DNA from: Escherichia coli
Lineage (GTDB): Bacteria; Pseudomonadota; Gammaproteobacteria; Enterobacterales; Enterobacteriaceae
Assembly (NCBI RefSeq): GCF_965641715.1
Contig: NZ_OZ282453.1
Length of the DNA stretch: 64,000 nt
Reading direction: 5' to 3' (one strand)
In this document: positions 28,682 through 48,458 of the stretch, piece by piece
How the letters are laid out: each line of letters starts with the position of its first letter
Position numbering within the stretch: position 1 is the stretch's first letter
Notes under the pieces: generated by a model
What the model was told of the DNA's origin: nothing
What the model saw: only the letters and a program-made list of their open reading frames with translations
The model's database searches: none
Position numbers and translations under genes: made by a program

Positions 28682-30953
28682 GGAAAACTCCCCAGTGTTG
28701 CAGCGATGCCAGTGCCTGCTGTTCGAGTTGTTGATGATGTGCAATGGCTTGTGGTGGACAATGCAACGGCATTTGCAGTGCCGAAACGGGAAGTTGCGCC
28801 AGTTGATAATGTTCAAGCACCTGATGCGCCAGCGTCCCGCGTTCTCGTGGTGGTAGCCAGGCCATCGCCGCGCGTAAATCGGGCAGGGCATTGATAAAAT
28901 CGGCATCACTTAGTTGATTTAAATGACTGCTGAAACCGGCGATAAATGCCGGCTGACAGGCCAGTTGATGACGGGCTAATGCCAGCAAACCGTGCAGCGC
29001 TTCGCCGGATTGTGCCGGGAAAAACTGTGCCAGCATCGCCAGCGCCGCTTCGGCACTGGCGTTGGGATGTTCCAGACGCATCAGTGCGCCAAGAGCCGCG
29101 CCGCGATCCAGCGCCGGGGCATGAATCGCCTGACTGCGTCGCTCCAGTAAGGCTACCGCCGCAGAAAGCGAAACGCCGGGTAAATTAACGCCGCTATGTA
29201 GATCGCGCAGGATATGGCAAAGCGCCTGCCAGCTATGCAGGTGAGCGTGAAACTCCTTTTCATCCGGTTTGCCGTTGGATTCACACAGCCAGAGCGTGCG
29301 ATCGATAGCCGCGCATAACGTCGTTTGTAATATCTGCGCGCCTTGCATACCGCTAATTTCATCCTGCCGCCATAAGGCATATAGCACTTCCAGCGCCTGG
29401 CCCATTTCGGCAAATTGATTTTCCTGGGCGATTAATAATGTGAGTTGCTCCAGTAATTGTTGACTGAAGGACGCCAGACCCGCTAACGCCGCCTGGCTAA
29501 GACATGTGGTGATACTGCCGATTCCACCCGCGTCCAGCATATCGGCTTCTAATTTATGGCGTGCGGCTCCCTGGAGTGTTGCACCAAAGCAGGCGGCCTC
29601 AATCAATGCCGCATGCTGGCTAAGCGGGCGGGTTAATTTCCAGCGTTCTTCACCGTTGCCTGCAAGTGTCAGTGTGCTTCCCTGCTGGCGTACAATCCCT
29701 GGGATCTCCAGTATTGCCAGCCGATGCAGCACCTGGCTTTGCGCCAGCCCATCGGAGGTAAAGCGATTTAAGGTAAGCTCCGCCGGAAGAGAGATTGTGG
29801 TACGTTCCAGTTCGCAAGTGACATCTTTTGGCAGAGGCGGTTGTGGCGTGGAGGGGGCTAGTTTACCGAATCCGTCACCCGCTAATGTGTCTATCAACGT
29901 TAGCAGAATCGGATCGGTGTCGGGATGAATAACTCCGCGATAGCTCCATGGCAACGGCGCATTCAGGGCTTCTTTAATCAGCGAGCCTGCGAAGGCATCC
30001 AGCCAGTCAGTGCGTAACGGCAGTGTATGACCGCGCAACTGTGCCAGCGCCATCGCATGCAGATGAGCGGCAGCCATATCCGCGGTCGAAGCAGGCAACT
30101 TGTGCTGGCGCAAACGGGTAAGGATAGTTTTTAGCAGTTGTTCTCCCGCCTGCTGTAAGCCCCACTGCCAGCACCAGCTTTGCCAGACCGGGGCAGGCAT
30201 TCCTGAAAGGTATCCTGCCAGCGCATCAAGGCGCTTTTCACTGTAGGGTGTGAGATAACAACCTGTAACGGCATCTGCCAGCGAGGGCAATTCTGGCTTG
30301 TTAATGTCCTGCGGGCATTCGCGCCACATTTTTGCCAGTGCCGGAGCGTGCCAGCCACCGCAGACGACTAACACGTCGCCATTATTTTGCTGCACCGCCC
30401 ATGCAATCCAGCGAGCCATAAAGGCTTCGCGCTGACGATTGAGTGCATCGCCGGGGAAATCGCCCCGCAGTTGGGCAAAATAGTGCGCCAGTGCAGAGGG
30501 TAATGCAGTTTGCTGGCTTTCATCTTCGAACAAGTGATCCCACAGGGTGTCGCTGTTATCCATGCGGGTGGCACGCAGCAGCAAGGTCTGGCTTTCCTCT
30601 TGCGTATCAGGCGAATCGTCCTCTTCTTCACTCTGTGCCCAGCAAGGCAAATCGATGAAGTAAGTTTGTGCCTGAATACGACGAGCGGCTTGTAGCGCCT
30701 GCCACTCCGGCGAAAATTCAGCAAATGGCGTCCAGGCACCACGCCCGGGGGCTGCACCGTCCTGATACTGGCAATAACTGTAAATAGCTACCGGAAGCTG
30801 GTGGGCTAAAAACAGTTCGTCTACCCGGTCATTAAAATCAGCCGGGCCTTCAATCAACACGTATCGTGGCCGCTGGCTTTCGATTAACGATTTCACCAGC
30901 CGGGCGCAGGCCGGGCTATGATGCCGGATGCCGACAATTAACGGCTCGCTCAT
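28674..30953 (-). CDS. yehM: uncharacterised 759-aa protein YehM
   Basis: start at MSEPLIVGIRHH 10 nt after the yehL stop with GAGGAAAG RBS; no motif I can assign. Confidence 0.85.
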   Translation of the reverse strand: MSEPLIVGIRHHSPACARLVKSLIESQRPRYVLIEGPADFNDRVDELFLAHQLPVAIYSYCQYQDGAAPGRGAWTPFAEFSPEWQALQAARRIQAQTYFIDLPCWAQSEEEDDSPDTQEESQTLLLRATRMDNSDTLWDHLFEDESQQTALPSALAHYFAQLRGDFPGDALNRQREAFMARWIAWAVQQNNGDVLVVCGGWHAPALAKMWRECPQDINKPELPSLADAVTGCYLTPYSEKRLDALAGYLSGMPAPVWQSWCWQWGLQQAGEQLLKTILTRLRQHKLPASTADMAAAHLHAMALAQLRGHTLPLRTDWLDAFAGSLIKEALNAPLPWSYRGVIHPDTDPILLTLIDTLAGDGFGKLAPSTPQPPLPKDVTCELERTTISLPAELTLNRFTSDGLAQSQVLHRLAILEIPGIVRQQGSTLTLAGNGEERWKLTRPLSQHAALIEAACFGATLQGAARHKLEADMLDAGGIGSITTCLSQAALAGLASFSQQLLEQLTLLIAQENQFAEMGQALEVLYALWRQDEISGMQGAQILQTTLCAAIDRTLWLCESNGKPDEKEFHAHLHSWQALCHILRDLHSGVNLPGVSLSAAVALLERRSQAIHAPALDRGAALGALMRLEHPNASAEAALAMLAQFFPAQSGEALHGLLALARHQLACQPAFIAGFSSHLNQLSDADFINALPDLRAAMAWLPPRERGTLAHQVLEHYQLAQLPVSALQMPLHCPPQAIAHHQQLEQQALASLQHWGVFHV

Positions 30954-30963: not shown

Positions 30964-32052
30964 TCACGGCAGGCGGTGGCGGGCTTGATAATAAGCCTGC
31001 CAGTGAGCTTCTTTATGTGTGGCGACACGCTGTTCGAAGTAACGGCGCAGGCGCGCGCGATCTTCTTCGTTATCTTTGACGATGGTTCCGGCAATACAGT
31101 CCACCAGGTCGGCAGGCTCCCCCGCACGATTCGCTAAAAACCAGGCGCGGACGCCCACGGCGTGGGCCACGTTCACGGCTTCAGCCGTGGACATAATCGC
31201 TGTTAGTGTATCCATTGACGTTTTCTTTTCGCCGTTGGCACGCAGATCGCGGAAGGTGCGGACCAGTAACTCCAGTACCGCGTCAGGCACTTTATGCGGA
31301 ATACCGCTATGGGCCAGCAAACGCGCCGAAGCACTGGCGACAAGCTCCAGCTCCTGGGCGAAATCCATAATCGGAAAGACAGTTTCAAAATCGAAGCGAC
31401 GCTTTAGCGCAGCACTCATTTCATTGACGCCGCGATCGCGGGTATTGGCAGTGGCAATAATATTAAAGCCTTCTCGCGCATAGAGCTGACTGGCTTCACC
31501 TGTGAGTTCCGGTACCGTCATCACCCTGTCAGAAAGCATACCTAACAGACAGTCTTGCACTTCCAGCGGTGTACGCGTTATCTCTTCAAAACGGACGATT
31601 TTGCCGTCGCGCATTCCCTGGTAAAGCGGGGCAGGGACCAGCGCTTCCGTTGATGGACCATGATTGATAAGCAGGGCGTAGTTCCAGCCGTACTTGATTT
31701 GATCTTCGGTAGTAGATGCGCCGCCCTGGATGGTTAACCCGGCATCGCCGCTAATAGCGGTTGCCAGTAATTCAGACAGGAGAGATTTTGCGGTGCCAGG
31801 TTCCCCCACCAACATCAAACCGCGTCCGGTGGCAAGAGTGACTAACATACGTTCGACAGCGGAGGGACTAATCACCACTTTACGGCTAATATTTTGCGCG
31901 CTATCGCCAAGGATAAAAGCACGGGCCGCAGGCAAACTTAACTGCCAACCGGGCGGGCAAGGTGCGTTATCATTTTGTTTTAATTTTGTCAGTTCATCGG
32001 CGTATAACACAGCAGCAGGCGGACGCTGCAGATGATTATTCTGCGGTGACAT
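30964..32052 (-). CDS. yehL: MoxR-like AAA+ ATPase YehL
   Basis: Walker A LVGEPGTAKS, Walker B-like IVRFEEI, sensor-1 IIATANT; start at MSPQNNHLQ. Confidence 0.85.
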   Translation of the reverse strand: MSPQNNHLQRPPAAVLYADELTKLKQNDNAPCPPGWQLSLPAARAFILGDSAQNISRKVVISPSAVERMLVTLATGRGLMLVGEPGTAKSLLSELLATAISGDAGLTIQGGASTTEDQIKYGWNYALLINHGPSTEALVPAPLYQGMRDGKIVRFEEITRTPLEVQDCLLGMLSDRVMTVPELTGEASQLYAREGFNIIATANTRDRGVNEMSAALKRRFDFETVFPIMDFAQELELVASASARLLAHSGIPHKVPDAVLELLVRTFRDLRANGEKKTSMDTLTAIMSTAEAVNVAHAVGVRAWFLANRAGEPADLVDCIAGTIVKDNEEDRARLRRYFEQRVATHKEAHWQAYYQARHRLP

Positions 32053-32161: not shown

Positions 32162-32244
32162 ATAAAAAAACCTGCTGGTGAGGCAGGTTCTTTTATTTAC
32201 TACTTTGATGTTAAGTTACTGATACTGCAACATGGCATCTCAAC
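32162..32244 (-). ncRNA. orzO: putative type I antitoxin sRNA (OrzO-like)
   Basis: minus-strand promoter TTGCAA-17 nt-TATAAT; 5' end is a 19-nt near-direct copy (17/19) of zorO 5' UTR positions 32392-32410, so the RNAs can pair; 3' end at hairpin ACCTGC/GCAGGT plus U-run. Confidence 0.5.
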
Positions 32245-32482: not shown

Positions 32483-32572
32483 ATGGACACGCTGACACAA
32501 AAGTTAACCGTGCTCATTGCTGTACTGGAGCTATTAGTAGCTCTGTTACGGTTGATTGATTTGTTGAAGTAA
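32483..32572 (+). CDS. zorO: type I toxin, 29-aa hydrophobic peptide (ZorO/ShoB-like)
   Basis: ORF MDTLTQKLTVLIAVLELLVALLRLIDLLK with AAGGAG RBS 5 nt upstream, verified codon by codon; long leader from predicted TSS near 32308; not in the ORF track. Confidence 0.7.
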   Translation: MDTLTQKLTVLIAVLELLVALLRLIDLLK

Positions 32573-32680: not shown

Positions 32681-32998
32681 TTATTCTATTTCTTGGTTGA
32701 ATATATTCTGTAGTTCACGATTAAAAATTGCTATTACAGTTTCAGGTGATTCACCTCGTAATTTCCGCTCATCAATACACTCATCTCTTATATAAATCAA
32801 CGCATCATTTATTAGCGGGTCAGCATCTTCTCGATCACGTTGATGAAATGTTGGATGTAGCCGGAATCGCTCCAGTCGATAGACGGAACCTGTAAATAAT
32901 TCAGAGCATTTATGGACCTCAAGTCTGAAGGAAAACGGATCTTCAGGTACAGGGACCTCATAATCGTAAATAGCAACCAGCTCTTTTTGCACGATCAT
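32681..32998 (-). CDS. yehK: uncharacterised protein YehK
   Basis: 105-aa ORF between yehI and the toxin locus; translation matches remembered YehK. Confidence 0.8.
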   Translation of the reverse strand: MIVQKELVAIYDYEVPVPEDPFSFRLEVHKCSELFTGSVYRLERFRLHPTFHQRDREDADPLINDALIYIRDECIDERKLRGESPETVIAIFNRELQNIFNQEIE

Positions 32999-33058: not shown

Positions 33059-36000
33059 TTAATGGAAAATGACGTCAGGTGCGCTTAACGCCTCACTCAA
33101 ATCAAACACATCAAGTTCGGCAAAAGTGACGGATTTATTGTCACGGTACACTCGAAGAGAACGGAAGCTCATTAGCGCTTTGCTATCAACATTGTAGTGG
33201 TTAAAACCGGGTGAAAACTTAAGGACCAGCCGGTACTCACCCAGGTCATAGACAAATGCGTCCTCATAGCCTGACTCCCAGCCTTTGTATCGCATTCCCA
33301 TAAGTTGCCCAACGGTAGCGGATTTACCTTCCCAGCGAGTCAGGCTGTTACTGGTTGACTCGTCAGGTGTGAGCAGCACCGTGCGGCGCGACAACTGGCG
33401 AAAAGGCGGCATAATTTCGTAATCGGCAAAAAGCTGTGCAAATTCACTGCGCATTTCTGCTGTCATTTCTAACGGGTGGGCAATGCCAATCAGAGCATCC
33501 GCAGGAAGGTCAATGGGCTCATCCTGCGCATTGCAGAACTCCCCCTCTGCGGCCACACGAAAGGCGTTGAGTAAACGACGCGGTTCATTTGCCGGATAAA
33601 CCCCCCATATTAATCGCTGGGTAACCAGGCGGGTAAAGGGATGATTAACAAACAGAGAATGAAAATCTGCCAGCGACCAGCGTCGGGTGGTACGTAGGGC
33701 AGCTTCAAGACGCGGGAGCAGGTTTTTGCTCACCTGAGTAGCATCTTTTTTTAGCCCTTTTAGTCGGGCCAGTGCCTCGGGCGCTTTCAGTTGATCGTCA
33801 TCGGCACGCAACCGGGGAACACTTTTCTGGCGAACGTTTTGTTGATCAAAGATAACCGGGTTGAGGTTTTCATCGAAGCGAACGGTAAACTGCCGGGGAC
33901 CAAAATCAAAAATCAACGCCTGCGGATCATCAAGACCCAGTGTTGGGACTAATCTGTCCGCTAACTCTTCCTGGCTTAGCCCGCGATTTTCTGCGACCAC
34001 CTGAAGAAATTCCGCTGCGTTTTCACGTAATGAAGAGGATTTCGCCCGTTGTGATACATGATGCAGCTGTATCAGCGCCATATCATTATTCATCAAGGTA
34101 AGTATATTCAGACCAATGACAGCACGGGCAGATTTGCCTTCTTGTGGCCAGGCGAGGATCTGTGTCGTCAGATCCCGAGCCGTGCTTTCGTCACCAAAGA
34201 GACTTAACGCCAGAAATGCCCAGTTGTCTTTTGCGGGGGCACCAGCTTGTTGCCACGCAGTGAAGAGATCCCAGGCAAAAGCGGCCAGCGTTTGTGGCTG
34301 GCAAAACGTTTTCAGTTGTTCCAGACCGCTATAAAAACGTCCGCCCTGGGTAAAGCGCAGCATTTCGCCGATAATTTCCAGAGCGTCATCGGTAACAGGC
34401 TGATTATTAGTGATAAGTCGCGGCCTGGACCACATTGCCGGATGCCAGAAATCAGGGGCTTTTGGAATGCGTGCCGGGTAAATGTCCATTGGACCCTGTT
34501 TCAGTAAATGCTCCAGGGCAGGCCATACATCTGTACGCTGCCAGCGGTTTGCCACGGTTTGCAGCAATTCACCATGTCCCTGTTCGTAAAGTAAACGCAG
34601 GGCAAGTAATGCAGCTTCGCTATTATCGCTGGATTTGGTGAAGACAAGAGGGATAAGTGCAGTAGCCGTATGTTCCGGCCAATGTAAAATCCACTGGCGA
34701 GCCAGATCACGCTGCACCGCGAAACGTCGCCAGACGCGGGCAACGGGCAGGGCCAGTTCTGTTGCGCCAAAATTTAAAATTAACGGAAATGTTTCTTTTG
34801 GACGATGTAAAAAAGCCAACATCAGACCTGGTAGCGCATCCAACCCGAGGATACTGAGAAAATAGTCCTCACCCGCGAACAGATGTTTTTTCTCATTGAT
34901 ACGCAGCCAGAAGGTCAAAGCCATCTCACGCGGCAACTGTGCCAATAAATACAGGTTCCAGACACTCTTTTCCGGACGATAACGTGAGTAGTTGTCATTT
35001 TCCCATATGTTAATTAACGCTTCTATGTGACCGCTGCGGAGCGCCTGTTCTGCTAATTGTGCTTCCGGGGAGTTCCAGCCATTCAGGATCTCTTCAACCC
35101 GCCCCTGGTAGTAATGCCACTGAACAATGAGTGAATTGCGTGCAGCATCCAGTTTTCCGGGGAGTATATAATTCAGAAACAGCCATACATCATCCCCAAA
35201 ACCCAGTTCCTGTAATACAACTCGCCCACTTTTTTGTTCCATGCGTTCCGCAAGAGATTCCGTGCTGAAATAACGGGCAGACTCAGTGGAGGCAAGCCAC
35301 TCTTGTTCGCCTGGTTGCCAGTAAACTTGCGGGGTTAATTCGAGCGGTGCCAAATCAAGACGTGGAGCTGTCATTTTTTTCTTACTACGCCACGGTGGTG
35401 AAACGAGGATTTCAGGCAGATTGCTGTTATCGGTGCCATCAATAACCGGTTTGGGCGGTGCCAATAAATAACTATTCAGTACTGCCCGGGCTTGAGTACT
35501 TAACCACTGCATCACCTCTTCTGCCAGTTGTGGCTGCGATGCCATCAGCGTTTGTAACAGCGTACGCCAGTATTCATCGCGTGCTTTTTGCTGGGCAGGC
35601 AGCTTTTTGTCTTCGATGATTGGATAACCAGGGCGGGCTGGTGGTTCTTTTAACGCCAGCAGTTCTGCCAGTGCCGCGAGCGTCGCGTGGGGGAAGTTTT
35701 TACTGTATTTAGCCACACGTTGCAGGCTGGGTTTGTTTTTATCAGCCACCAGTAGCAAGGTGTGGATGACCTGCGGATGGTTAATTTGTACCAACAGACT
35801 GCCGCAATCTTCTTTATGGGCATACATCGCGAGGCGCGGAATGGCTGCCAGTCCTTGTTCGCGCAAAAGGGCGGCGCAGGCCGCGTAGCCGAAGTGGTTT
35901 TTTTGTGACATGTAGCTGGCTTCGCGATCGCTAAATACGTCCAGGCCCCAGTATCGTTCGAGTTTTTTTACCGCCGTATTATCAGTAGCAACGACCTTTA

Positions 36001-36691
36001 ACCACTCCTTTGAATGGAGACTTGACCGGGAGCTTTCAAGACTGGCGAGTTCATTGGCTATTTCAGGCTTTTCCGGGAGGATCAGCGCAATAAAAGGACG
36101 GCGAATTTTGGGTATTCCTGGCAGTGCGGCAATGAGTTTATCGGCACAACGCTGCCAGCAACTTTCCTCTGCCAGCGACAGATGCTTACGCAAACGGAGA
36201 TCGAAATCGTTATAGGTCGCGGAGCCATAACCGTAGCCATAGTCCTCGTCCTGATACTGCAATGTCACTACCAGAGGATCACTCTCATAACACCGCGCAA
36301 TAAACTGGCGTGCAATCACCACCTCAGTCGCATATTCCAGCCCCTCTTGTTGGACGATTTCGTCGAGCAACTGTTGGCTGTCATTTTGCGCGATACAGGC
36401 TAGCGCCGCCATTGTCCGGGCCGGGATTGAGGGTTTGTGTTCGCCGATCAAGTTGATGGCCTGCGTGATGGCGGACTGCCACTCCAGTGAAAAATTTTCA
36501 TAACGCCAGACAATGTTTTTTTTCTTCTCAGCTTTTTTTAGCAATTCATCACCCAGTGTCTGGATGAGGCTTTCAGTGATAACAGGCGCTGGTTCGCCCG
36601 GCCAATTGCGATGGCTGAGTGGTGTTTTACCCTTTTTATATTTCAGTTCCAGTTGGGCGTTATCAGCCAGCCACGGTAATTCCTTGTCCAT
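33059..36691 (-). CDS. yehI: giant DUF4132-type protein YehI (no WGR domain)
   Basis: 1210 aa; C-terminal ~350 aa shares conserved blocks with the two downstream paralogs (WAF.AL...GDESTAR, LDFGPRQFTV, ADYE..PPF). Confidence 0.88.
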   Translation of the reverse strand: MDKELPWLADNAQLELKYKKGKTPLSHRNWPGEPAPVITESLIQTLGDELLKKAEKKKNIVWRYENFSLEWQSAITQAINLIGEHKPSIPARTMAALACIAQNDSQQLLDEIVQQEGLEYATEVVIARQFIARCYESDPLVVTLQYQDEDYGYGYGSATYNDFDLRLRKHLSLAEESCWQRCADKLIAALPGIPKIRRPFIALILPEKPEIANELASLESSRSSLHSKEWLKVVATDNTAVKKLERYWGLDVFSDREASYMSQKNHFGYAACAALLREQGLAAIPRLAMYAHKEDCGSLLVQINHPQVIHTLLLVADKNKPSLQRVAKYSKNFPHATLAALAELLALKEPPARPGYPIIEDKKLPAQQKARDEYWRTLLQTLMASQPQLAEEVMQWLSTQARAVLNSYLLAPPKPVIDGTDNSNLPEILVSPPWRSKKKMTAPRLDLAPLELTPQVYWQPGEQEWLASTESARYFSTESLAERMEQKSGRVVLQELGFGDDVWLFLNYILPGKLDAARNSLIVQWHYYQGRVEEILNGWNSPEAQLAEQALRSGHIEALINIWENDNYSRYRPEKSVWNLYLLAQLPREMALTFWLRINEKKHLFAGEDYFLSILGLDALPGLMLAFLHRPKETFPLILNFGATELALPVARVWRRFAVQRDLARQWILHWPEHTATALIPLVFTKSSDNSEAALLALRLLYEQGHGELLQTVANRWQRTDVWPALEHLLKQGPMDIYPARIPKAPDFWHPAMWSRPRLITNNQPVTDDALEIIGEMLRFTQGGRFYSGLEQLKTFCQPQTLAAFAWDLFTAWQQAGAPAKDNWAFLALSLFGDESTARDLTTQILAWPQEGKSARAVIGLNILTLMNNDMALIQLHHVSQRAKSSSLRENAAEFLQVVAENRGLSQEELADRLVPTLGLDDPQALIFDFGPRQFTVRFDENLNPVIFDQQNVRQKSVPRLRADDDQLKAPEALARLKGLKKDATQVSKNLLPRLEAALRTTRRWSLADFHSLFVNHPFTRLVTQRLIWGVYPANEPRRLLNAFRVAAEGEFCNAQDEPIDLPADALIGIAHPLEMTAEMRSEFAQLFADYEIMPPFRQLSRRTVLLTPDESTSNSLTRWEGKSATVGQLMGMRYKGWESGYEDAFVYDLGEYRLVLKFSPGFNHYNVDSKALMSFRSLRVYRDNKSVTFAELDVFDLSEALSAPDVIFH

Positions 36692-36700: not shown

Positions 36701-39700
36701 TTATTCAAACAGGGCTTCAATATCGTTAATTAGCTCGCTGGCGGTGATGGCATCGAGTACGGAGAGCTGCGCTTCCTGTATTGAATTACTCCCCCAGCCA
36801 TAGCTTTCCGCTTTGCCTTCCCATAGCCACAGCTTGCTTAAGAGTTGCTCGGCACTCAGTTCGGCTGGCGACATGCCTACCGCAAAGCCTTCATCGATTT
36901 CCATGATTAACGACCAGCGGCCCAGAGGTTTGATCATCCAGCCGATCCAGCCTCCATCCTGTGGTTCGCCCTTTATCCAGCCTTTATTCGCCAGCCCCAT
37001 TACCCGACCGCTCGGGCATTTTCTGCCTGCCCAGCGGGTCAGTTCGCTGGCATTGCGCTCGGTTTCTGTCAGGGCGTAACTGTTACGGTCGAGCTGGCGG
37101 AACGGCGGTAGCAGTTCGTAGTCGGCAAAAAGCTGCCCAAATGCGGCGGCATCCGTCGGTGATATTTCCAGAACGTGAGGAATACCAACAGAGATATCGC
37201 CTTCCGGCAGGGTGAAAAGATCATCGTCAGCGGTGCTGTAGCTGTTATCTTCCGCTACGCGGAAGCACGTCAGTAGCTGGTTTTCGGTGCTATAAACGCC
37301 CCAAATCAGACGGCGGGTTAAGTGGTGTACCAGTGGATGTTCAACCAGGAAGAGCTGAAAGTTTTCTGGCGACCAGCGGCGACGCAGGCACATGGCGGAT
37401 TCCAACCTTGCTACCTGCTGGGCGGCGACGGTACGCGCATCTTTTTTCAGCAGTTTGTAGCGGTTAACAGCATCGTTCGCCTGTGATTCATCATCGCTTT
37501 TGTTTGGTTTGGGCAGGTCTTTCAGACGGCTGCCGGAAGCGTCACGCACAAACGGTTTTAAGGTTTCATCAAAGCTGACGGTGAACTGGCGTGGGCCGAA
37601 ATCCAGCAGCAACGAACCGTTATCATCCAGACTGAGATCCGGTGCTAACCGATCTTCAAGCTCCGCCACTGTCAGTTCGCGACTTTCAGCAATGTCGGCA
37701 ATTTTCTCTTTCGCCCGCTCCTGTAAAGCTTTGAATTTCAGTTTCTGAGCAATGCCGTTAAGCTGCATCAGAGCGATATCACTACCGATAGCGGCGAGAA
37801 TATCCAACCCAACGGTGGCGCGTTTATGCTGAGATTCGCCAGGCCAGGCGCGTATTAATGGCGTCAGTTTGCGAGCGGTGTCGTCGTTACCGAGAACACA
37901 TAACGCAGTGAACGCCCAGCTTTCTTTCGATGGTGCACCCGTAGTCAGCCAGGCGGTAAACAGATCCCAGGCAAATTCAGCCAGTGAGTCGGCGGTACAG
38001 GCATCTTTCACCTGCAATAATCCCGGATACAGCGCCTCTTCCTGAGGGAAGCGGAGCATTTCACCGAGGTGGAGGAGGGCGTTATCTGGCAGTACCTTGC
38101 TGCTATTTTTGAGTTTTGGGCGAGTCCATAATGGAGGTTGATAAAACAACGGTAAAGGGGGGATTTTCGCCGGGTATTTACCCACAGGACTGTTGTCGTT
38201 ATTTTTATTTTGAGTTTCCCAGGGCGGCGAGACTAGTACCATTGGTAGAATTTCTGAGTTTGCAAAATCTTCATTGCGACTATTCAGCAATTGCTGACAT
38301 TGTTGCAATAAATTTGCCGCTTGCGACGATAATCCGATGACTAATTTTTCGACCAATAAAGGATTTGCATTAAGTAATGAAACCAGCAACGTATGTTTGC
38401 GTTTATCATCTTTTTTTACCAATTCTTCGGCTAATGCCGCTATCGTGGCAGAAGGAAAATTTTCGGCACTTTTTATTAGTCGTTCATAACAGCGTTTATT
38501 AGTATCGGCGGCTTCGATGAGTGCCGTAATGGCCAACGGATGATTAATACATTTCAGTACGTCACCGCAATTATCTTCTTCAGCATAGGAAGCCAGGCGA
38601 GCCAGTGCCGCTATACCTTGTTCCCGTAATACCGTAGCTGACCAACTGGCACCATAGGTGTTAAATACATCAATGTATTGATAGTTCTCCAGTATTTCGA
38701 GCGTGAATGGATCTGTCGCTACCAGTTTCAACATTTCAAGTTGTGGAACATCTGCGACCTGGTGTAAACGATGTACGATCTCATGGGCCACTTCGGGTAT
38801 TTCTGGCATTAAAATGGCAATTAACGGTTGGCGATAGAGTGATATATCTGGTAACGCAACGAGTAATTTTGCAATGCAATTTTGCCATACTTCTTCTTCT
38901 GCTAGTGATAAATGTTTACGCAGACGTAAACTAAATTTGTCGTTATTCCTTCTATAACTGTCCTTGCTGCTATCTGCATAATTAATAAAGAAAGTCAAAT
39001 GTTCATCTTTATAGTCAAAATCGAAATCAATTTGCCACCAGAAGATGACAGTTTCAGTTGCGTATTCGATACCGAAGGTGCTTACAATTTCATCCAGCAA
39101 CTCGGATGAGGTTTCATCATTCCAGCCCTGACAAAAACATATTTCCAGAAAAGTAAGTACCGCCATAGTACGCGCGGGTATCTCAGTCTTTTGGGCCTTA
39201 ATTAAGCTGATTGCCTGGCTAATCGCATCAGCCCATTCATCAGAGCATGAGCTGTAATCGAAAGTCAGATTTTTATAATAATGATAAGTACGATTTGCCA
39301 ATCGGGAAATTAAATTTTGTTTTTCGGGTTTGGTTGGTTTTTTAACTGGCTCTCCCGGCCAAAGGCGGTGGCTGAGGGCATGGCGGGCAATATTCGGGGG
39401 AAGAATAATGGGATCGTTGTCTGCCAGCCAGGGTAAACCATTAGTTGCTGCCTGGCGATTTATTGAGGCTTTTTCCTCTGTGACCAGGACTTTCTTTGCT
39501 GAGGCATCATGTGAGTGAGCGTTAGCGTCTACTTGCTCCACATACCCCTTCTTCACCTTCTCCGCAATCAGCTTCAGTTCCACTTTTTCCGCCGCCGCAG
39601 CATCTGCAAAGCTTTTTACCTGACTTTGCCCGTTAGTGCCGACTTTACCCCAGGTTATATGCAGCTCGTTTCCCTGCTGCTCCACCGCCCAGAATTTATG

Positions 39701-39733
39701 TGATTTTTCGTCCTGATAAATATAGGTTTTCAT
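36701..39733 (-). CDS. WGR-domain plus DUF4132 protein, 1010-aa paralog of MolR/YehI
   Basis: N-terminal WGR-like module (KFWAVEQQGNELHITWGKVGT) and C-terminal module about 75% identical to the molR-like product by eye. Confidence 0.85.
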   Translation of the reverse strand: MKTYIYQDEKSHKFWAVEQQGNELHITWGKVGTNGQSQVKSFADAAAAEKVELKLIAEKVKKGYVEQVDANAHSHDASAKKVLVTEEKASINRQAATNGLPWLADNDPIILPPNIARHALSHRLWPGEPVKKPTKPEKQNLISRLANRTYHYYKNLTFDYSSCSDEWADAISQAISLIKAQKTEIPARTMAVLTFLEICFCQGWNDETSSELLDEIVSTFGIEYATETVIFWWQIDFDFDYKDEHLTFFINYADSSKDSYRRNNDKFSLRLRKHLSLAEEEVWQNCIAKLLVALPDISLYRQPLIAILMPEIPEVAHEIVHRLHQVADVPQLEMLKLVATDPFTLEILENYQYIDVFNTYGASWSATVLREQGIAALARLASYAEEDNCGDVLKCINHPLAITALIEAADTNKRCYERLIKSAENFPSATIAALAEELVKKDDKRKHTLLVSLLNANPLLVEKLVIGLSSQAANLLQQCQQLLNSRNEDFANSEILPMVLVSPPWETQNKNNDNSPVGKYPAKIPPLPLFYQPPLWTRPKLKNSSKVLPDNALLHLGEMLRFPQEEALYPGLLQVKDACTADSLAEFAWDLFTAWLTTGAPSKESWAFTALCVLGNDDTARKLTPLIRAWPGESQHKRATVGLDILAAIGSDIALMQLNGIAQKLKFKALQERAKEKIADIAESRELTVAELEDRLAPDLSLDDNGSLLLDFGPRQFTVSFDETLKPFVRDASGSRLKDLPKPNKSDDESQANDAVNRYKLLKKDARTVAAQQVARLESAMCLRRRWSPENFQLFLVEHPLVHHLTRRLIWGVYSTENQLLTCFRVAEDNSYSTADDDLFTLPEGDISVGIPHVLEISPTDAAAFGQLFADYELLPPFRQLDRNSYALTETERNASELTRWAGRKCPSGRVMGLANKGWIKGEPQDGGWIGWMIKPLGRWSLIMEIDEGFAVGMSPAELSAEQLLSKLWLWEGKAESYGWGSNSIQEAQLSVLDAITASELINDIEALFE
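39665..39718. repeat. 54-bp segment identical to 43475-43528
   Basis: direct sequence comparison of the 5' coding ends of the two WGR paralogs. Confidence 0.85.
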
Positions 39734-39745
39734 TGTTAAATCCTT

Positions 39746-42700
39746 TTAATCAAACAGTGATTCAATGTCGTTAATCAGCTCGCTGGCGGTGATGTCGTCG
39801 AGCATGGAGAAAGTGGGTGAGGATTGTTTACCATAGCGATCATAAGGGGCGGTGATTTTTACGCTTTCGACAGGCAGCAGGTCGCTATACCCCGTTTCGC
39901 CATAAATTAATGAAAAAGGTTCCGTTTCAAGTTCGAGAGCACCATAAGGGGTAGATTTGCGCATCGCATAAACGCTGCCGCTTTCTTCCAGACGTTGCCA
40001 GCCTCGGCGTTCCAGCCCGACAATGCGTCCGGCCTGGCAGAGACGTCCGTTCCAGCGTGACAATTCATGGACATTACGTTCGTTATCAGCAAGGTGGTAA
40101 CTACCACGTTCGAGCTGTTGGAAAGGGGGAAGCAGTTCGTAATCAACGTAAATTTGCCTGAATGCAGCGGCGGATTCAGGGGGGATTTCCAGCACATGCG
40201 GTATACCGATGTTTCCTGCTGGCAGCGTGAATAACTCATCCTGCGCATCGCTGTAAGTGCTGTCTTCTGCCACGCGAAAACAGGTGATAAGAGCGTTTTC
40301 ATCGTTATAAACCCCCCATAACAGCCGTCGGGTTAAGTGACGTACCAGCGGATGCTCCACCAGAAACAGGCGGAACTGCTCTGCCGTCCAGCGTCTGCGC
40401 TGGCACATAGCCTGTTCCAGACGGGTAATATGCTGGCTGGCGATAGCACGAACATCTTTTTTCAACTGTTTGAAGAGATTAACTGCGTCAGTTGCCAGTG
40501 TTTTATCATCGCTCTGGTTTGGCTTAGGTAAATCTTTCAGGACTTTGCCGTTTGCATCGCACACTACAGGTTTTAAGGTTTCGTCAAAACCAACGGTGAA
40601 TTTGCGGGGGCCGAAATCCAGTATCAGCGAGCCACTGCTATCAAGCCCTAAATCTGGAGCCAGGCGGTCTTCCATTTCAGCCATAGTCAGCCCACGGTTT
40701 TCAGCAACTATGTTGATTTTCTCGCGGGCATGTTCCTGTAATGCTTTGAATTTAATTTTTCGCGCGATGCCATTAAGCAGCATTAGCGCAACATCGCTGC
40801 CAATATCAGCTAATACATCCAGCCCGGACACCGCCCGTTTATGCTGGGATTCCCCAGGCCAGGCGCGGATAAGCGGGGTTAATTTACGCGCGGTGTCGTC
40901 ATTGCCTAAAATCCCAAGCGAAGTAAATGCCCAGTTTTCTTTTGCGGGTGCGCCAGCTTCTGTCCAGGCGGTATACAGATCCCAGCCAAATTCAGCCAGT
41001 GATTCGCGGGTGAAGATTTCTCTAATGATATCCAGCCCAGCGTAGGCGGTAATGTCGCGAGGAAAGCTCAGCATAGTGCCGAGGTGGCGCATAGCGTCAT
41101 CTGACAGAGGCAGGTTGTTACTTTTAAGCCGTGGTCTGCGCCATAAGGTGAACTGATAAAAGCCGGGCAGTGGGGCGATTTTAGCGGGATATTCTTCCAG
41201 CGGCTCGCTATCAAATAATGTTGCCAGCGCAGCTAAAACATCAGGTTGGTTATACCCCTGGGCGATTTCTTCAATCGTTTCTCGCTGGTTTAAATTCACC
41301 AGCAGACGAAGCGCCTGGCGGGCACAATCACGATCTTTTCCTTTTTTGCCCAAGGCCACAGGAAGTAGCCCGGCGGCAGCATGGCGTGGGAAGTTAGCCA
41401 GCCATTTTCGAGCATCTTCAGCAGACATTTTTTTCTGTAATCGCTGCGCCATCGGTAATGCTAATTCGCTGACGCCCAGGAAGAGGGTGAATATCCATAA
41501 CTGTTGTGGCTTACGTTGCAGACATTTCATAAACGCAGGAATGGCCGCATCACCAAAAATCGCCAGAATTTCTCTCTCGCCGGAGAATTGCTCTTCATTA
41601 ATTATTTGATTGAGAAAAGAAATAGCATGCTGAGTGGGTAGGAAGCAGAGCGCGTACAACTGCCAGTGTCTGCTTCCTTTGTTATGGTATTGCGCAAACT
41701 CGGCTTTCAGCGCGGGGAAATCGAAACGTAACAGGGCATCAACTGCGCTTTGTGGCATTATTTTTTTTTCGTATTGTTCTTCTCCGGTTCTGCGCCATTC
41801 CTTAAACCCCAGTCGCCAAAGGATTTGCTGTTCTGGCGTTAAAGGGATGAAAGACGTTTCCCAGCGTTCTTTTTTTATCGGTGGCAGGTCGGTAAATAAG
41901 GTTTGCTGTGATGCCTGATATTGCGCGATTTCACTGAATCTGGATATGTCAGTATGACTGATTAACTCTGTAATTCCTGGTGTGATATCCGTGACGGCAG
42001 GAATGGGAAGTACCGGTAAATCAAATACGGGTATGACATTCTTTTTCTTATTTATTACCCACGGTGGAGCGACAAGCAGCTCCGGCAACATATCCACAGT
42101 GGCATATTCACATTCTTCAGCTACTGGCAGCGGACGACATTCAGATAAGATGCCTGCCGCCTTAGCATTAACCCAGGGAATGACCTCGCATACTAACTCT
42201 GGCGTGGCGGTAATCAGTTTGACAAGCGCTTTACGCCACTCATTATTTTCATGTATTGCCAGCAAAGTAGCATAAGCGGCAATAGCCGCAGCGGGATGTT
42301 TTTGGCAGGCTTTGCTTAAGTATTCCAGGTGCTTTTTCTTGCCATTTACACCGAGGATCAGAATTTGAATCGCATCCGGGTGATTCGTTTTCCATAGCCA
42401 TTTGACAAGATCTTCAGTCTCGCTGATACGCTCGAAGAGATAAGTGGGATTGTCAGAATGCTCTTCCGTAAACTCAAGAAGTATCCGGCTTACACCGCGC
42501 ACCCCATTATTTGCCAGCAACATTGCCAGATAAGCGCGAAAATCATGATACAACGGTGGGAAGTCGTATTTTTCTGCTGTAGTCAGAGCGGCGTCATCGG
42601 TTACCACCAGTCTTAACCAGGTCATCGCCGGAACGTTTTGATCTGCATAACGTAGCGCCATAGCATTGGCAATATCCGGGCGTTCAGGGAGCAGTAACGC

Positions 42701-43543
42701 CGCAAAAGGTTGTCGTGCTGGGGATAGCGAGGGAATAGCAGCGAGTACTTTATCTACACAGCGTTGCCACTCATCTTCTGAAGCGAGTGAAAGATGATGA
42801 CATAGACGTTGATGCCAACTCGGTAGCGATTCTGCTTCGTGATTAGGTGGAATGATGGTGGTTACTGCGCCTTTTACTGGTTTATATTTGAGTTGAAGAG
42901 CGAGAAGGGCGATTTCAACGGCACTTTCCAGACCACAGCGAATGACTAAGTCATCGACCAGTTCATCTTGAGAGTAAGAGTTCCAAAAGCCCCAGAGCAA
43001 TGCTGCATCAGATTGCGCACTCCCTGTCGGTTGATTACCCTTAACTCGCATTTGTAACTCAGCAAAAGCCTGCTGCCAGTTTTCTGGATAAGAGCGGTAA
43101 TTGTTGTCGGGATCATATGCCCTGGTGTTATTCGCGATGCGCTTCCATATTTGGCCATCTTTGTACAGATAATTGATCTCTCTGGGGCGAGAGCGATGAG
43201 GAAAAGCAAATCGATTAATATCGTCAGTGACCGGAATGACTGCATCATCAGCCAGCCAGGGGCGTTGGTTTTTACTCTCAGGGGAAGTTTCAACTTCAGG
43301 AGTGGCTTTGGTAATGGGGGGGATATGCACGTTTGCTGAAGCATTTTCCACATAGCCTTTTTTCGTTTTCTCCGCGATAAGCTTCAGTTTCGCTTTTTCC
43401 GCTGCTGCAACATCAGCAAAATTTTTTACCTGGCTTTGCCCTTGGGTACCAACTTTTCCCCAGCTGATATGCAACTCGTTTCCCTGCTGCTCCACCGCCC
43501 AGAATTTATGTGATTTTTCGTCCTGATAGATAAAGTGTCTCAT
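39746..43543 (-). CDS. molR: WGR-domain plus DUF4132 protein, full length (MolR-like)
   Basis: 1265-aa uninterrupted ORF; N-terminal WGR (KFWAVEQQGNELHISWGKVGT); position directly downstream of metG. Confidence 0.85.
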   Translation of the reverse strand: MRHFIYQDEKSHKFWAVEQQGNELHISWGKVGTQGQSQVKNFADVAAAEKAKLKLIAEKTKKGYVENASANVHIPPITKATPEVETSPESKNQRPWLADDAVIPVTDDINRFAFPHRSRPREINYLYKDGQIWKRIANNTRAYDPDNNYRSYPENWQQAFAELQMRVKGNQPTGSAQSDAALLWGFWNSYSQDELVDDLVIRCGLESAVEIALLALQLKYKPVKGAVTTIIPPNHEAESLPSWHQRLCHHLSLASEDEWQRCVDKVLAAIPSLSPARQPFAALLLPERPDIANAMALRYADQNVPAMTWLRLVVTDDAALTTAEKYDFPPLYHDFRAYLAMLLANNGVRGVSRILLEFTEEHSDNPTYLFERISETEDLVKWLWKTNHPDAIQILILGVNGKKKHLEYLSKACQKHPAAAIAAYATLLAIHENNEWRKALVKLITATPELVCEVIPWVNAKAAGILSECRPLPVAEECEYATVDMLPELLVAPPWVINKKKNVIPVFDLPVLPIPAVTDITPGITELISHTDISRFSEIAQYQASQQTLFTDLPPIKKERWETSFIPLTPEQQILWRLGFKEWRRTGEEQYEKKIMPQSAVDALLRFDFPALKAEFAQYHNKGSRHWQLYALCFLPTQHAISFLNQIINEEQFSGEREILAIFGDAAIPAFMKCLQRKPQQLWIFTLFLGVSELALPMAQRLQKKMSAEDARKWLANFPRHAAAGLLPVALGKKGKDRDCARQALRLLVNLNQRETIEEIAQGYNQPDVLAALATLFDSEPLEEYPAKIAPLPGFYQFTLWRRPRLKSNNLPLSDDAMRHLGTMLSFPRDITAYAGLDIIREIFTRESLAEFGWDLYTAWTEAGAPAKENWAFTSLGILGNDDTARKLTPLIRAWPGESQHKRAVSGLDVLADIGSDVALMLLNGIARKIKFKALQEHAREKINIVAENRGLTMAEMEDRLAPDLGLDSSGSLILDFGPRKFTVGFDETLKPVVCDANGKVLKDLPKPNQSDDKTLATDAVNLFKQLKKDVRAIASQHITRLEQAMCQRRRWTAEQFRLFLVEHPLVRHLTRRLLWGVYNDENALITCFRVAEDSTYSDAQDELFTLPAGNIGIPHVLEIPPESAAAFRQIYVDYELLPPFQQLERGSYHLADNERNVHELSRWNGRLCQAGRIVGLERRGWQRLEESGSVYAMRKSTPYGALELETEPFSLIYGETGYSDLLPVESVKITAPYDRYGKQSSPTFSMLDDITASELINDIESLFD
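43475..43528. repeat. 54-bp segment identical to 39665-39718
   Basis: direct sequence comparison. Confidence 0.85.
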
Positions 43544-43640
43544 TCTGCATCCCTGTAATTTTATCCAGTTGAATGCAGATGCTACCAGTATTTATGCGGG
43601 TTAGAGAGAGACAAAATCGTAAGAAAACAACTTTAGGAAT

Positions 43641-43674
43641 TTATAAAGAAAAGGCGCTGTCGATGCAGCGCCTT
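43641..43674 (-). terminator. intrinsic terminator downstream of metG
   Basis: perfect 9-bp inverted repeat AAGGCGCTG / CAGCGCCTT followed on the minus strand by a T-rich tract. Confidence 0.7.
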
Positions 43675-43683: not shown

Positions 43684-45717
43684 TTATTTCACCTGATGAC
43701 CCGGTTTAGCACCAGCATCCGGGCTTAGCAGGAAAATATCTTTCCCGCCAGGACCGGCAGCCATCACCATGCCTTCGGAGATACCGAAGCGCATTTTACG
43801 TGGTGCCAGGTTAGCCACCATAATGGTGTGACGACCAATCAGTACCTGCGGATCCGGGTAAGCAGAACGAATGCCAGAGAAGACATTGCGTTTTTCACCG
43901 CCGAGATCCAGCGTCAGGCGCAGCAGTTTGTCAGAACCTTCAACAAACTCTGCGTTTTCAATCAGCGCCACGCGCAGGTCAACTTTAGCGAAGTCGTCAA
44001 AGGTGATGGTTTCCTGAATCGGATCATCTGCCAGCGGGCCAGTTACCGGCGCGGCAGCTGCTTTCACTTCTTCTTTAGACGCTTCCACCAGTGCTTCAAC
44101 CTGCTTCATATCTATGCGGTTATACAGCGCCTTGAACGGATTCACTTTATGGCCCAGCAGCGGTTGCTGGATACCATCCCAGGTCAGTTCCGTATTCAGG
44201 AATGCTTCTGCGCGCTCGGTCAGTTTCGGCAGTACCGGCTTCAGGTAAGTCATCAGCACGCGGAACAGGTTTATGCCCATCGAGCAAATTGCCTGCAGGT
44301 CAGCATCGCGGCCTTCCTGTTTCGCCACCACCCACGGAGCCTGTTCATCGACATAGCGGTTAGCCAGATCAGCCAGCGCCATGATTTCGCGCACTGCTTT
44401 ACCAAATTCGCGGCTTTCCCACGCTTCACCAATCACTTCAGCGGCATCAGTGAAGGTTTTGTACAACTGCGGGTCAGCCAGTTCGCTTGCCAGCACGCCG
44501 TCAAAACGCTTGTTGATAAAGCCCGCATTACGAGAGGCCAGGTTAACCACTTTGTTAACGATATCGGCATTCACGCGCTGAACGAAATCTTCCAGGTTGA
44601 GATCGATATCATCAATGCGCGAAGAGAGTTTCGCAGTGTAGTAGTAACGCAGGCTGTCGGCGTCAAAATGATTCAGCCAGGTGCTGGCCTTAATAAAGGT
44701 GCCACGAGACTTAGACATCTTCGCGCCATTCACCGTCACATAGCCGTGAACAAACAGGTTGGTCGGCTTGCGGAAGTTGCTGCCTTCCAACATGGCAGGC
44801 CAGAACAGACTGTGGAAGTAAACGATGTCTTTGCCGATGAAGTGATACAGCTCAGCGGTGGAATCTTTCTTCCAGTATTCATCGAAGTTTACAGTGTCGC
44901 CGCGCTTGTCGCACAGATTCTTGAAAGAACCCATGTAGCCAATCGGTGCGTCCAGCCAGACGTAGAAGTATTTGCCCGGCGCGTTCGGAATTTCGAAACC
45001 GAAGTACGGTGCATCTCGGGAGATATCCCACTGTTGCAGGCCGGATTCAAACCATTCCTGCATTTTGTTGGCCACCTGCTCCTGCAACGCGCCGCTGCGA
45101 GTCCATGCCTGCAACATTTCGCTGAAAGAGGGCAGATCAAAGAAGAAGTGTTCGGAATCACGCATTACCGGCGTAGCGCCAGAAACCACCGATTTTGGTT
45201 CGATCAATTCAGTCGGGCTATATGTTGCGCCGCAGACTTCACAGTTATCGCCGTATTGATCCGGCGATTTACATTTCGGGCAGGTACCTTTCACAAAACG
45301 GTCCGGCAGGAACATGCCTTTTTCCGGATCGTACAGTTGAGAGATGGTGCGGTTTTTAATAAAACCGTTCTCTTTCAGGCGGCTGTATATAAGCTCCGAC
45401 AGCTGACGGTTCTCTTCGCTGTGCGTAGAGTGGTAATTGTCGTAGCTGATGTTAAAGCCTGCGAAATCAGTCTGATGTTCCTGACTCATTTCGCCAATCA
45501 TCTGCTCCGGGGTGATACCAAGCTGCTGAGCTTTCAGCATGATTGGCGTACCGTGGGCATCGTCGGCGCAGATGAAGTTGACTTCGTGGCCGCGCATTCG
45601 CTGGTAACGGACCCAGACATCAGCCTGGATGTGCTCCAGCATATGGCCGAGGTGGATTGAGCCGTTGGCGTACGGCAGTGCGCACGTTACCAGAATTTTC
45701 TTCGCGACTTGAGTCAT
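43684..45717 (-). CDS. metG: methionyl-tRNA synthetase
   Basis: start at [26 protein letters not shown] (HIGH-type motif), KMSKS present, zinc knuckle CPKCKS..CEVCG. Confidence 0.95.
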
Positions 45718-45884
45718 AGTAGGCATTACTTCTTTGTAGTGAAAAGGGCTTAGATAGTACCAAATGGGGCATGGTTACGTAAGTCCTGTGCAAGCATCTT
45801 ATGATGCATTATTAGGTAAGTACTTAGCTGTTAACTTCAGGTAAACTAATAGCGATAAGTTATCTTTATAAATAAGGAGTCGGG

Positions 45885-46994: not shown

Positions 46995-47022
46995 CGCCTA
47001 TTAACCATTCTGGTTATTCTTC

Positions 47023-47066
47023 ATACACCGCAGAGATGTTACATTGATGCGGTGTATTTGTTTTTG
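47023..47066 (+). terminator. intrinsic terminator after apbC
   Basis: 10-bp inverted repeat ATACACCGCA / TGCGGTGTAT followed by TTGTTTTTG. Confidence 0.7.
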
Positions 47067-47537: not shown

Positions 47538-47566
47538 TTTGCCAACACCGTTTTAAGCATATTTAA

Positions 47567-48435: not shown

Positions 48436-48458
48436 GCATAAATATAAGAGGCATTAAG

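Follow-up and report, generated by a model that had tools for sequence, protein, structure and literature searches.

What genes lie between metG and yehI in Escherichia coli, and how are they related to molR, the broken gene that K-12 carries at that position? We examined this question in a stretch of 64,000 nucleotides (nt) from an E. coli genome (RefSeq assembly GCF_965641715.1, contig NZ_OZ282453.1), which we refer to as the window. An open reading frame (ORF) scan of the window revealed three long, intact minus-strand ORFs arranged head to tail directly downstream of metG: a gene of 1265 amino acids (aa) next to metG, here called gene A; a 1010-aa gene, here called gene B; and yehI (Table 1). 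A preliminary description of the window, made from the sequence alone, had already reported two intact WGR-containing genes in this interval, and the ORFs and Pfam matches bear this out. It had also stated that K-12 has one broken gene there. The RefSeq annotation of K-12 strain MC4100 agrees, listing between metG and yehI a single 3796-bp DUF4132 pseudogene marked "frameshifted; internal stop."

Three tandem paralogs downstream of metG

The family to which these genes belong combines an N-terminal WGR domain (PF05406) with a C-terminal DUF4132 domain (PF13569) and comprises 8845 representative clusters at E ≤ 0.001. Both domains were found in the gene A protein, of which the first 1200 residues were used in the Pfam search, and in the gene B protein; YehI matched DUF4132 (E = 3.1e-47) and had no WGR match in Pfam. 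The ORF lengths and Pfam E values far exceed chance. An NCBIfam search gave only a partial match of the WGR region to a Leptospira family, far below the cutoff, and weak AAA and vWA matches.

The spacers between A and B and between B and yehI measure 12 and 9 bp. The A and B proteins are ~43% identical to each other (43 to 44% for A against the long B alleles described below). Within E. coli, the gene A protein is 87 to 89% identical to those of other A alleles, and YehI is 94.7% identical to K-12 YehI (95% for yehI at the nucleotide level). The gene B protein is 98.5% identical to its counterpart in strain ES5 and 99% identical to a public cluster of 1063 sequences. These results establish A, B, and yehI as tandem WGR/alpha-solenoid/DUF4132 paralogs that form the variable front end of a conserved yehK-yehL-yehM-yehP-yehQ cluster. 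The first 24 kb of the window are 99.1% identical to strain D8.

Table 1. Coordinates in the window of the paralog array, its domains and modules, its promoter elements, and the neighboring yeh genes
Feature	Coordinates	Strand	Description	Basis
Terminator-like hairpin	43651..43674	-	After metG, ahead of the gene A promoter region; 9-pair stem, 6 G-C, T-rich tail
LexA-box-like site	43551..43570	-	AACTGGATAAAATTACAGGG (CTG-N10-CAG), 8-27 nt before the gene A start codon
Gene A	39746..43543	-	Intact 1265-aa WGR-solenoid-DUF4132 protein, adjoins metG	ORF, Pfam
WGR domain of gene A	43337..43528	-	aa 6-69	Pfam, E = 5.7e-18
V2 variable module of gene A	41213..41998	-	aa ~516-777, no counterpart in short B
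DUF4132 domain of gene A	39998..40549	-	aa 999-1182	Pfam, E = 7.6e-50
Interval holding the ~3.8-kb segment missing from single-gene genomes	39567..43528	-	Breakpoints inside both WGR heads, nt 16-167 of each gene
Gene B, short allele class	36701..39733	-	Intact 1010-aa WGR-solenoid-DUF4132 protein	ORF, translation, Pfam
WGR domain of gene B	39527..39715	-	aa 7-69	Pfam, E = 5e-17
V1, allele-specific N-terminal solenoid module of short B	38176..39531	-	G+C 41.7%
Conserved 3' half of gene B	36701..38175	-	Common to K-12 molR
DUF4132 domain of gene B	36977..37534	-	aa 734-919	Pfam, E = 1.8e-51
yehI, third paralog	33059..36691	-	1210 aa, DUF4132, no WGR	ORF, Pfam
yehK	32681..32998	-	105 aa	ORF; RefSeq name of homologous gene
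yehL	30964-32052	-	MoxR-type AAA_5 ATPase
yehM	28674-30953	-	DUF5682
yehP	27545-28681	-	vWA
yehQ	25545-27572	-	SWIM	ORF

K-12 molR is a hybrid of genes A and B

Pairwise blastn comparison with K-12 gave different results for the two ends of molR. Gene A matched K-12 molR over the first ~200 nt (87%), over 968 nt at 70%, and otherwise over the last 66 nt only, whereas the last 1478 nt of K-12 molR were 91.8% identical to gene B and only 70% identical to A. At the protein level, gene A was 43% identical to the intact K-12-type allele of strain ESY002. Judged as an ortholog of K-12 molR, the 1265-aa gene shares its position and the promoter next to metG but not its gene body, and the initial view of it as an uninterrupted molR fails beyond the first ~200 nt. 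Gene B and K-12-type molR were 92% identical over the 3' 1478 nt; their N-terminal halves were only 46 to 48% identical as proteins, and ~248 aa were absent from the gene B protein. The absent residues correspond to residues 521 to 769 of the ESY002 allele and are the "shorter central region" that had been seen in the 1010-aa protein from the start. By sequence comparison, gene B and the body of K-12 molR appear to occupy the same gene slot as different allele classes. Gene B, at first taken for an additional paralog, is rather a short allelic form of the gene that supplied the body of K-12 molR.

A whole-locus alignment located the transition. K-12 is collinear with the window from metG into the first ~200 nt of A and resumes inside B, at window position 38175, continuing through yehI. 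The first ~200 nt of A and B, which encode the WGR domain, are 84% identical. We aligned the first 210 nt of eight A alleles and nine B alleles, all from genomes with both genes, and found seven sites that separate the two types. K-12 and E14 are A type at nt 7, 8, 11, and 15 and B type at nt 168, 186, and 189; the same pattern holds for strain 1105 at the first six sites, and its nt 189 matches neither type. Over nt 1 to 60, the single-gene alleles are 92 to 100% identical to E. coli A alleles versus 83 to 90% identical to B alleles. Over nt 151 to 210, they are 83 to 88% identical to B alleles versus 65 to 72% identical to A alleles. The 5' end of K-12 molR is thus of A type to about nt 150 and of B type beyond.

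Because its upstream region and 5' end are of A type, its 3' body is of B type, and the diagnostic sites switch from one to the other, K-12 molR is a hybrid that joins the promoter, LexA-like box, and first ~50 codons of gene A to the body of gene B. These results show that recombination between the WGR-coding 5' ends of the two genes, which are ~84% identical, removed ~3.8 kb and produced the single-gene layout. The segment that K-12 lacks is the A body plus the B head. In K-12, the hybrid later gained a stop codon and a frameshift and was then named molR; our own translation of the MC4100 pseudogene places the stop after codon 274 and the frame change near nt 2760 to 2870. The fragments of this pseudogene are yehF, yehG, and yehH (b2115 to b2117).

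Two considerations weigh against this reconstruction. The recombination claim rests on seven diagnostic sites and three single-gene alleles, and it would fit either one deletion or several. In addition, gene conversion among WGR heads could blur the assignment of heads to A or B. The heads do appear to be kept similar by gene conversion, since the WGR head of a fourth paralog in Escherichia fergusonii is 98% identical to the neighboring B head while its body is 72 to 76% identical to B alleles.

The 1010-aa gene is a short allele class of gene B

Alleles of gene B are mosaics. They are 90 to 100% identical in the WGR head and over the last ~480 residues, between which two modules, V1 (aa ~80 to 440) and V2 (aa ~520 to 770), behave as independent cassettes. 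The B proteins of strains 1105 and ESY002, for example, are 100% identical over alignment columns 241 to 520, 20 to 42% identical over columns 561 to 680, and 95 to 100% identical thereafter; those of strains 573 and ESY002 are 15 to 62% identical in V1 and 90 to 95% identical over columns 441 to 520.

The V1 module of the short B allele shares 46 to 48% protein identity with the long forms and had no blastn counterpart in K-12, ESY002, or 1162invT2; in Escherichia sp. E1V33 it has a counterpart at 90.8% identity. Its G+C content is well below that of the C-terminal half of the gene (41.7% versus 53.6%). The 3' half, by comparison, encodes a sequence with 92 to 94% protein identity to long B alleles and matches nearly all E. 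coli genomes at ~93%. Gene A aligns to short B only over A residues 1 to 515 and 778 to 1265. The block in between is itself variable: V2 of gene A (aa ~500 to 750) has 68 to 79% protein identity among E. coli alleles, with a proportion of synonymous differences (pS) of ~0.5, and its nucleotide identity to ES5 is 69 to 73%, with neighboring chunks at 99 to 100%. Since most family members are ~1250 aa long and both A and YehI keep the V2 block, the short B form is derived; other members of ~1000 aa exist. We conclude that the 1010-aa gene is a short B allele class with its own low-G+C V1, no V2, and a C-terminal half shared at 92% with K-12 molR, and that it is not an added gene.

Might the short form be the product of a deletion, decaying into a pseudogene, and not a working variant? 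It lacks a ~248-aa module found in almost all family members, and in the O157:H7 lineage, which makes up about 70% of the sampled carriers, 48 bp are deleted and the gene is annotated with a frameshift. However, short B is open in diverse non-O157 strains, and its ratio of nonsynonymous to synonymous substitution rates (dN/dS) is 0.16 to 0.19 against both ES5 and Escherichia sp. E1V33. The short form has been kept at 91.6% protein identity in the latter and at 86% in a 130-member cluster, ~1000-aa relatives occur elsewhere in the family, and its fold is predicted with confidence. We therefore regard decay of short B as unlikely.

Gene-wide dN/dS values for A, B, and YehI were 0.15 to 0.27, compared with 0.01 to 0.07 for metG and yehL, and dN of the paralogs was 5 to 10 times higher than that of their neighbors. 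Protein identity to Escherichia sp. E1V33 follows the same division, with 99.1% for MetG and 98.4% for YehL versus 82% for A, 91.6% for B, and 86.6% for YehI. In A and YehI, no 50-codon sliding window had a ratio of nonsynonymous to synonymous differences (pN/pS) above 0.5, and positive selection is not supported. A, B, and YehI are constrained, and presumably functional, yet far less so than their neighbors; dN/dS values well below 1, together with the confidently predicted fold, argue that they are not decaying. Their diversity is more suggestive of long-standing allele classes that recombination has reshuffled than of recent adaptive bursts.

The flanking genes also vary. Against other E. 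coli strains, dS was 0.17 to 0.24 for metG (43684-45726) and 0.05 to 0.16 for yehL (30964-32052), with identity ranging from 93% to 99.7% per 300 bp. Such values seem high within a species. Recombination in the history of the array seems to have involved these flanking genes as well.

A three-gene array is the older state in Escherichia

Related species carry the array in the same order. Escherichia albertii has metG followed by A (1268 aa), B (1255 aa), and YehI (1215 aa); E. fergusonii has four paralogs at the locus; Escherichia sp. E1V33 has A, a short B, and YehI; and Escherichia sp. MOD1-EC7003 and Klebsiella spallanzanii have three paralogs each. The fourth E. fergusonii paralog (positions 2224-5988 of locus L084) lies between A and B and is split into two ORFs (916 and 331 aa), so it is probably disrupted. 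Because the outgroups carry A, B, and YehI, the multigene array is ancestral, and because the A and B proteins are only ~43% identical, the split between them is old. These comparisons show that the three-gene array is the older Escherichia state and that the single-gene layout reflects a deletion.

We surveyed 5426 complete E. coli genomes; the frequencies given here derive from coverage counts and evenly spaced samples of match lists and are not the result of typing each layout. Gene A was covered over at least 80% of its length in 1629 genomes (~30%), at 88 to 98% identity, and the K-12-type body to the same extent in 4011. The corresponding count for short B was 407. Its V1 segment was found in 410 genomes (~7.5%), 406 of which matched at 99% identity or above, and the junction of A with short B in 405. 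A junction search found 1636 more matching places than genomes, a surplus consistent with the presence of two WGR heads in ~30% of genomes. The ~3.8-kb segment has been lost from about 70% of E. coli strains, K-12 included. The locus had been described beforehand as strain variable, on the understanding that K-12 and most other E. coli strains do not share its two intact genes; the counts agree, with the same A and short-B pair in 405 to 410 of the genomes and any A and B pair in ~30%.

Among 45 evenly spaced short-B carriers, about 70% were of the O157:H7 type, for which the match was shorter and split in two. We examined one such locus, in which 48 bp are deleted from B, the annotation marks B as frameshifted, and a stop codon interrupts A. 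The other sampled carriers were diverse (enterotoxigenic E. coli, avian isolates, O78, O55:H7, and strain D8) and matched as one unbroken piece. The exact pair of A and short B is a minority state that is well represented in public data. Multigene layouts have also appeared in the literature: the "metG/DUF4132/yeh region" of sequence type 131 (ST131) is described as an insertion site of transposon TnMB1860, and strain JJ1886 has three DUF4132 genes there, P423_RS12390-12392 (PMC9334617). A similar layout occurs in strain 1162invT2. The feature is thus already catalogued strain variation in a known, uncharacterized family, and its novelty is low.

Could the single-gene layout be ancestral instead, with A and B arriving later by duplication or horizontal insertion? 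That layout is the majority state in E. coli, and the low G+C content of the short-B V1 and its near identity across carriers would suit a recent spread. This scenario is nonetheless very unlikely: E. albertii, E. fergusonii, two other Escherichia species, and K. spallanzanii have three or four paralogs in the same order, the divergence of A from B rules against a recent duplication, and the single-gene alleles have chimeric A/B heads. Still less credible is the original proposal that the 1265-aa gene is intact K-12 molR and the 1010-aa gene an extra paralog gained in some strains, for although the former lies next to metG, nearly equals the K-12 pseudogene in length (3798 versus 3796 nt), and shares its promoter region, and although the latter occurs in only 7.5% of E. 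coli, the proposal is already contradicted by the K-12 molR body (~70% identical to A over 968 nt versus 92% identical to B over the 3' 1478 nt), by ESY002, which carries A plus a full-length K-12-type B, and by the outgroups, which already possess both genes.

The promoter region of gene A

The 150 bp upstream of gene A are essentially identical to the region upstream of K-12 molR and match the published K-12 PmolR primer T946 (PMC5025477). They contain the LexA-box-like site AACTGGATAAAATTACAGGG, which was identical in nine E. coli upstream regions, K-12 among them, and in Escherichia sp. E1V33; in E. albertii, the CTG and CAG arms are kept and the flanks have diverged. The sequence pattern of this box makes gene A a candidate member of the LexA regulon. 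Directly upstream, at 43571-43590 on the minus strand, lies a second, imperfect copy, TACTGGTAGCATCTGCATTC (CTG-N10-CAT), whose 20-mer adjoins that of the first and which is conserved among E. coli strains.

One paper places molR, with a known SOS box, in the LexA regulon, an assignment that concerns the K-12 hybrid gene (PMC6590174). The molR promoter is also activated by BglJ-RcsB (PMC3950696). These K-12 promoter experiments describe the gene A promoter and probably apply to the whole A-B-yehI array where it has been kept. The DdrO DNA damage regulon of Deinococcus includes WGR and DUF4132 genes, which are strongly induced (PMC8533742). We scanned 61 homologous clusters for CTG-N10-CAG from -300 to +30 relative to their first gene and found it at background level (7 loci, with 0.14 expected per region). 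Given this lack of enrichment in other taxa, we treat SOS control as specific to Escherichia. Three Xanthomonadales loci (L048, L051, and L058; Stenotrophomonas and Tahibacter) share the motif CTGGGAA-N5-GA(A/G)CAG 155 to 290 nt upstream of the first DUF4132 gene. It is unlike the LexA box and may be a lineage-specific regulatory site.

Predicted structure of the gene B protein

An AlphaFold2 model of the gene B protein, built from a 60-sequence alignment, had a mean predicted local distance difference test score (pLDDT) of 90 and a predicted template modeling score (pTM) of 0.77. In the model, the WGR domain (aa 1 to 70) is followed by a disordered linker (aa 71 to 97), a helical solenoid extending to about aa 700, and a C-terminal alpha/beta region that includes DUF4132. 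The solenoid consists of stacked helices that matched HEAT/ARM repeat proteins in a fold search. It is broken by a largely non-helical stretch at aa ~485 to 549, and the V2 module of long alleles would lie in this stretch. The fold search gave no informative match for the alpha/beta domain, and neither Pfam nor the fold searches detected an ADP-ribosyltransferase domain in A or B. We found no solved structures for YehM, YehQ, or DUF4132.

The neighboring genes and their conservation across phyla

All eight genes of the cluster (A, B, yehI, yehK, yehL, yehM, yehP, and yehQ) are open in the window. The labels used here are RefSeq product names, supplemented by Pfam matches of E. albertii homologs (AAA_5 and DUF5682) and a Pfam match (SWIM). 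YehL matches the AAA domains of Midasin, and YehP weakly matches a cobaltochelatase subunit. YehL belongs to a MoxR subfamily that is named but unstudied (PMC3893208), and the literature on DUF4132, DUF5682, the yeh genes, and WGR/MoxR/SWIM combinations held almost no functional information. The genes that are broken differ by lineage: K-12 has broken copies of molR and yehQ, ESY002 of yehL and yehM, and O157:H7 of A and B; strains 1162invT2 and 1105 have a frameshifted yehK.

We surveyed homologous loci in other species using one genome per species and 75 distinct related loci, with ORFs classed by their similarity to the window proteins. In most of these loci, one or more DUF4132 paralogs are followed by homologs of YehL, YehM, YehP, and YehQ. 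The cassette was present in Enterobacterales, Burkholderiales, Xanthomonadales, Geobacterales, mycobacteria, Myxococcota, and Holophagales. Arrays contained from one to at least seven DUF4132 paralogs, and the largest were in Massilia. Five Massilia loci (L032, L040, L043, L073, and L076) have roughly five to eight tandem DUF4132 paralogs, some followed by yehL and yehM homologs, and several Massilia genomes have extra solitary DUF4132 copies at other loci. We looked for further conserved neighbors that might act as effectors and found none consistently linked, only lineage-specific synteny. A search with the C-terminal domain returned no phage homologs and 32 plasmid records, several of whole-chromosome size.

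The spacer between yehK and yehL varies in length, from ~0.3 kb in K-12 to 628 bp here and ~1.2 kb in O157:H7 and ES5. In the window, it holds one zor-orz type I toxin-antitoxin copy (32164-32237 on the minus strand and 32483-32572 on the plus strand) that is absent from K-12. The OrzO-P antitoxin RNA scored 88.8 bits against Rfam, where the gathering score is 60, and a nearby 29-aa hydrophobic ORF, MDTLTQKLTVLIAVLELLVALLRLIDLLK, fits the z3289/z3290 toxins described between yehI and yehL (PMC2887945).

Farther out, the fimbrial region yehE/yehD/yehC/yehB (~47000-50200) is a strongly divergent allele, 78 to 89% identical to K-12 and ES5 versus 93 to 99% for the neighboring apbC. At the other end, most E. 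coli genomes match the first 24 kb of the window only from about position 6159 onward, and only 498 of the 5426 cover at least 80% of these 24 kb. This left ~6 kb, in which matching records name mhbT and 3-hydroxybenzoate 6-monooxygenase, looks like a strain-variable island.

Discussion

As an overall explanation, the history of deletion and hybrid formation together with an adaptor role for the paralogs seems to us probable. On its own, the adaptor model is tentative and falls short of an even chance. Each paralog would be an adaptor or sensor subunit of a MoxR-vWA machine, a tie suggested by the order of paralog array, YehL, YehM, YehP, and YehQ, which recurs across phyla. By analogy with PARP WGR domains, which bind DNA ends, the proposed role of the WGR head is nucleic acid binding. 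Partner specificity would be set by the solenoid modules, which evolve fast and recombine, and the conserved C-terminal half, including DUF4132, would dock onto the pair of YehL (MoxR AAA+) and YehP (vWA) with YehM and YehQ. In Escherichia, the array would be switched on by the SOS response and by BglJ-RcsB, and a changed number of paralogs or swapped modules would alter the target set of the machine. A broader version of this idea is more doubtful but still worth stating: the cassette may be a widespread, undescribed nucleic acid surveillance system, acting in defense or in the DNA damage response, in which the tandem, recombining paralogs give a MoxR-vWA motor its specificity and can replace one another as its subunits, the polymorphism of A, B, and yehI represents repertoire variation, and SOS is the trigger in Escherichia.

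Alternatively, the array and yehLMPQ could form an antiphage or conflict (immune) system, with the paralogs as diversifying sensors whose loss reflects the cost of immunity. The rapid evolution of the paralogs relative to their neighbors, the deep allele classes shuffled as modules, a copy number from one to at least seven, and repeated inactivation (molR and yehQ in K-12, A and B in O157:H7, yehL and yehM in ESY002) would all suit such a system, and MoxR-vWA pairs are core to predicted conflict systems (PMC7159879). However, a search of PADLOC-DB v2 with A, B, YehI, YehK, YehL, YehM, YehP, and YehQ gave zero matches at E ≤ 0.01. No effector domain was recognizable in these proteins and no extra conserved neighbor was found; the chromosomal position is fixed, with no phage homologs and few plasmid ones; no window of pN/pS exceeded 0.5; and the paper that describes the predicted systems makes no mention of YehL, SWIM, or WGR (PMC7159879). 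Although the pattern of evolution makes a role in defense attractive, we consider a dedicated immune system unlikely.

Transferring the name molR to the metG-proximal gene of other strains is a mislabeling, since K-12 molR is a recombinant remnant. The name itself refers to molybdate, which K-12 uses normally through ModE and ModABC. A role of MolR-like proteins as DNA-binding transcription factors for molybdate metabolism, as implied by this historical name and by a paper that, citing Lee et al. 1990, writes of "MolR-like TFs" whose DNA-binding domain is WGR (PMC7824862), is highly improbable, given that solenoid proteins of 1000 to 1265 aa in tandem arrays, in an operon with MoxR, vWA, and SWIM genes across phyla, are unlike a dedicated regulator, that molR is a pseudogene in K-12, and that molybdate genes are not coregulated with the Deinococcus homologs (PMC8533742). 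The label "molybdate regulator" looks unsupported for this architecture.

The locus offers a natural series of two, three, or four paralogs with swapped modules, intact or broken. Strains in which all eight genes are open suit the study of the YehL subfamily, and K-12, with molR and yehQ broken, does not. The corrected gene relationships, the modular allele structure of A and B, and the recognition of strains with eight intact genes are the useful products of this analysis.

Comparison with known systems

The closest comparison is with K-12 itself, where molR and yehI occupy the same locus, belong to the same WGR and DUF4132 family, and lie behind the same promoter with its LexA-like box. The difference is that K-12 has one broken hybrid gene in place of two intact genes and lacks the A body; in addition, gene B in the window has a different V1 module and is without V2. 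The ST131 region is the same chromosomal region and likewise has several DUF4132 genes, so the multigene layout was already present in the literature and in RefSeq. The published account uses the region only as a landmark, however, and the B allele of JJ1886 is presumably the long form (PMC9334617).

Known WGR-domain proteins include PARP1, PARP2, PARP3, and Bacteroides fragilis Q64V53 (PDB 2ra8). In contrast to the PARPs, the proteins of this locus have no ADP-ribosyltransferase domain; behind their WGR head come a disordered linker and then a helical solenoid.

The predicted MoxR-vWA ternary conflict systems of Kaur et al. 2020 (PMC7159879) resemble this locus in coupling a MoxR-vWA pair to a highly variable third component that undergoes module exchange. 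In those systems, the third component is VMAP, iSTAND, FtsH, or a beta-propeller protein, whereas here it would be the WGR-solenoid-DUF4132 protein, in which no effector domains were recognized.

Finally, the locus can be compared with established pairs of MoxR AAA+ and vWA proteins, namely, RavA-ViaA, CbbQ-CbbO, NorQ-NorD, CoxD-CoxE, and the chelatases CobS/CobT/CobN and BchI/BchD/BchH. Like them, it encodes a MoxR-type ATPase (YehL) and a vWA protein (YehP) together, here beside partners of ~1000 to 1300 aa. The theme of a large client subunit with an AAA+ and a vWA protein resembles the chelatases. Unlike the chelatases, however, the large subunits of this locus have no detected similarity to CobN or BchH, and the locus differs from the known pairs in combining tandem, rapidly diverging paralogs with DUF5682 and SWIM proteins.

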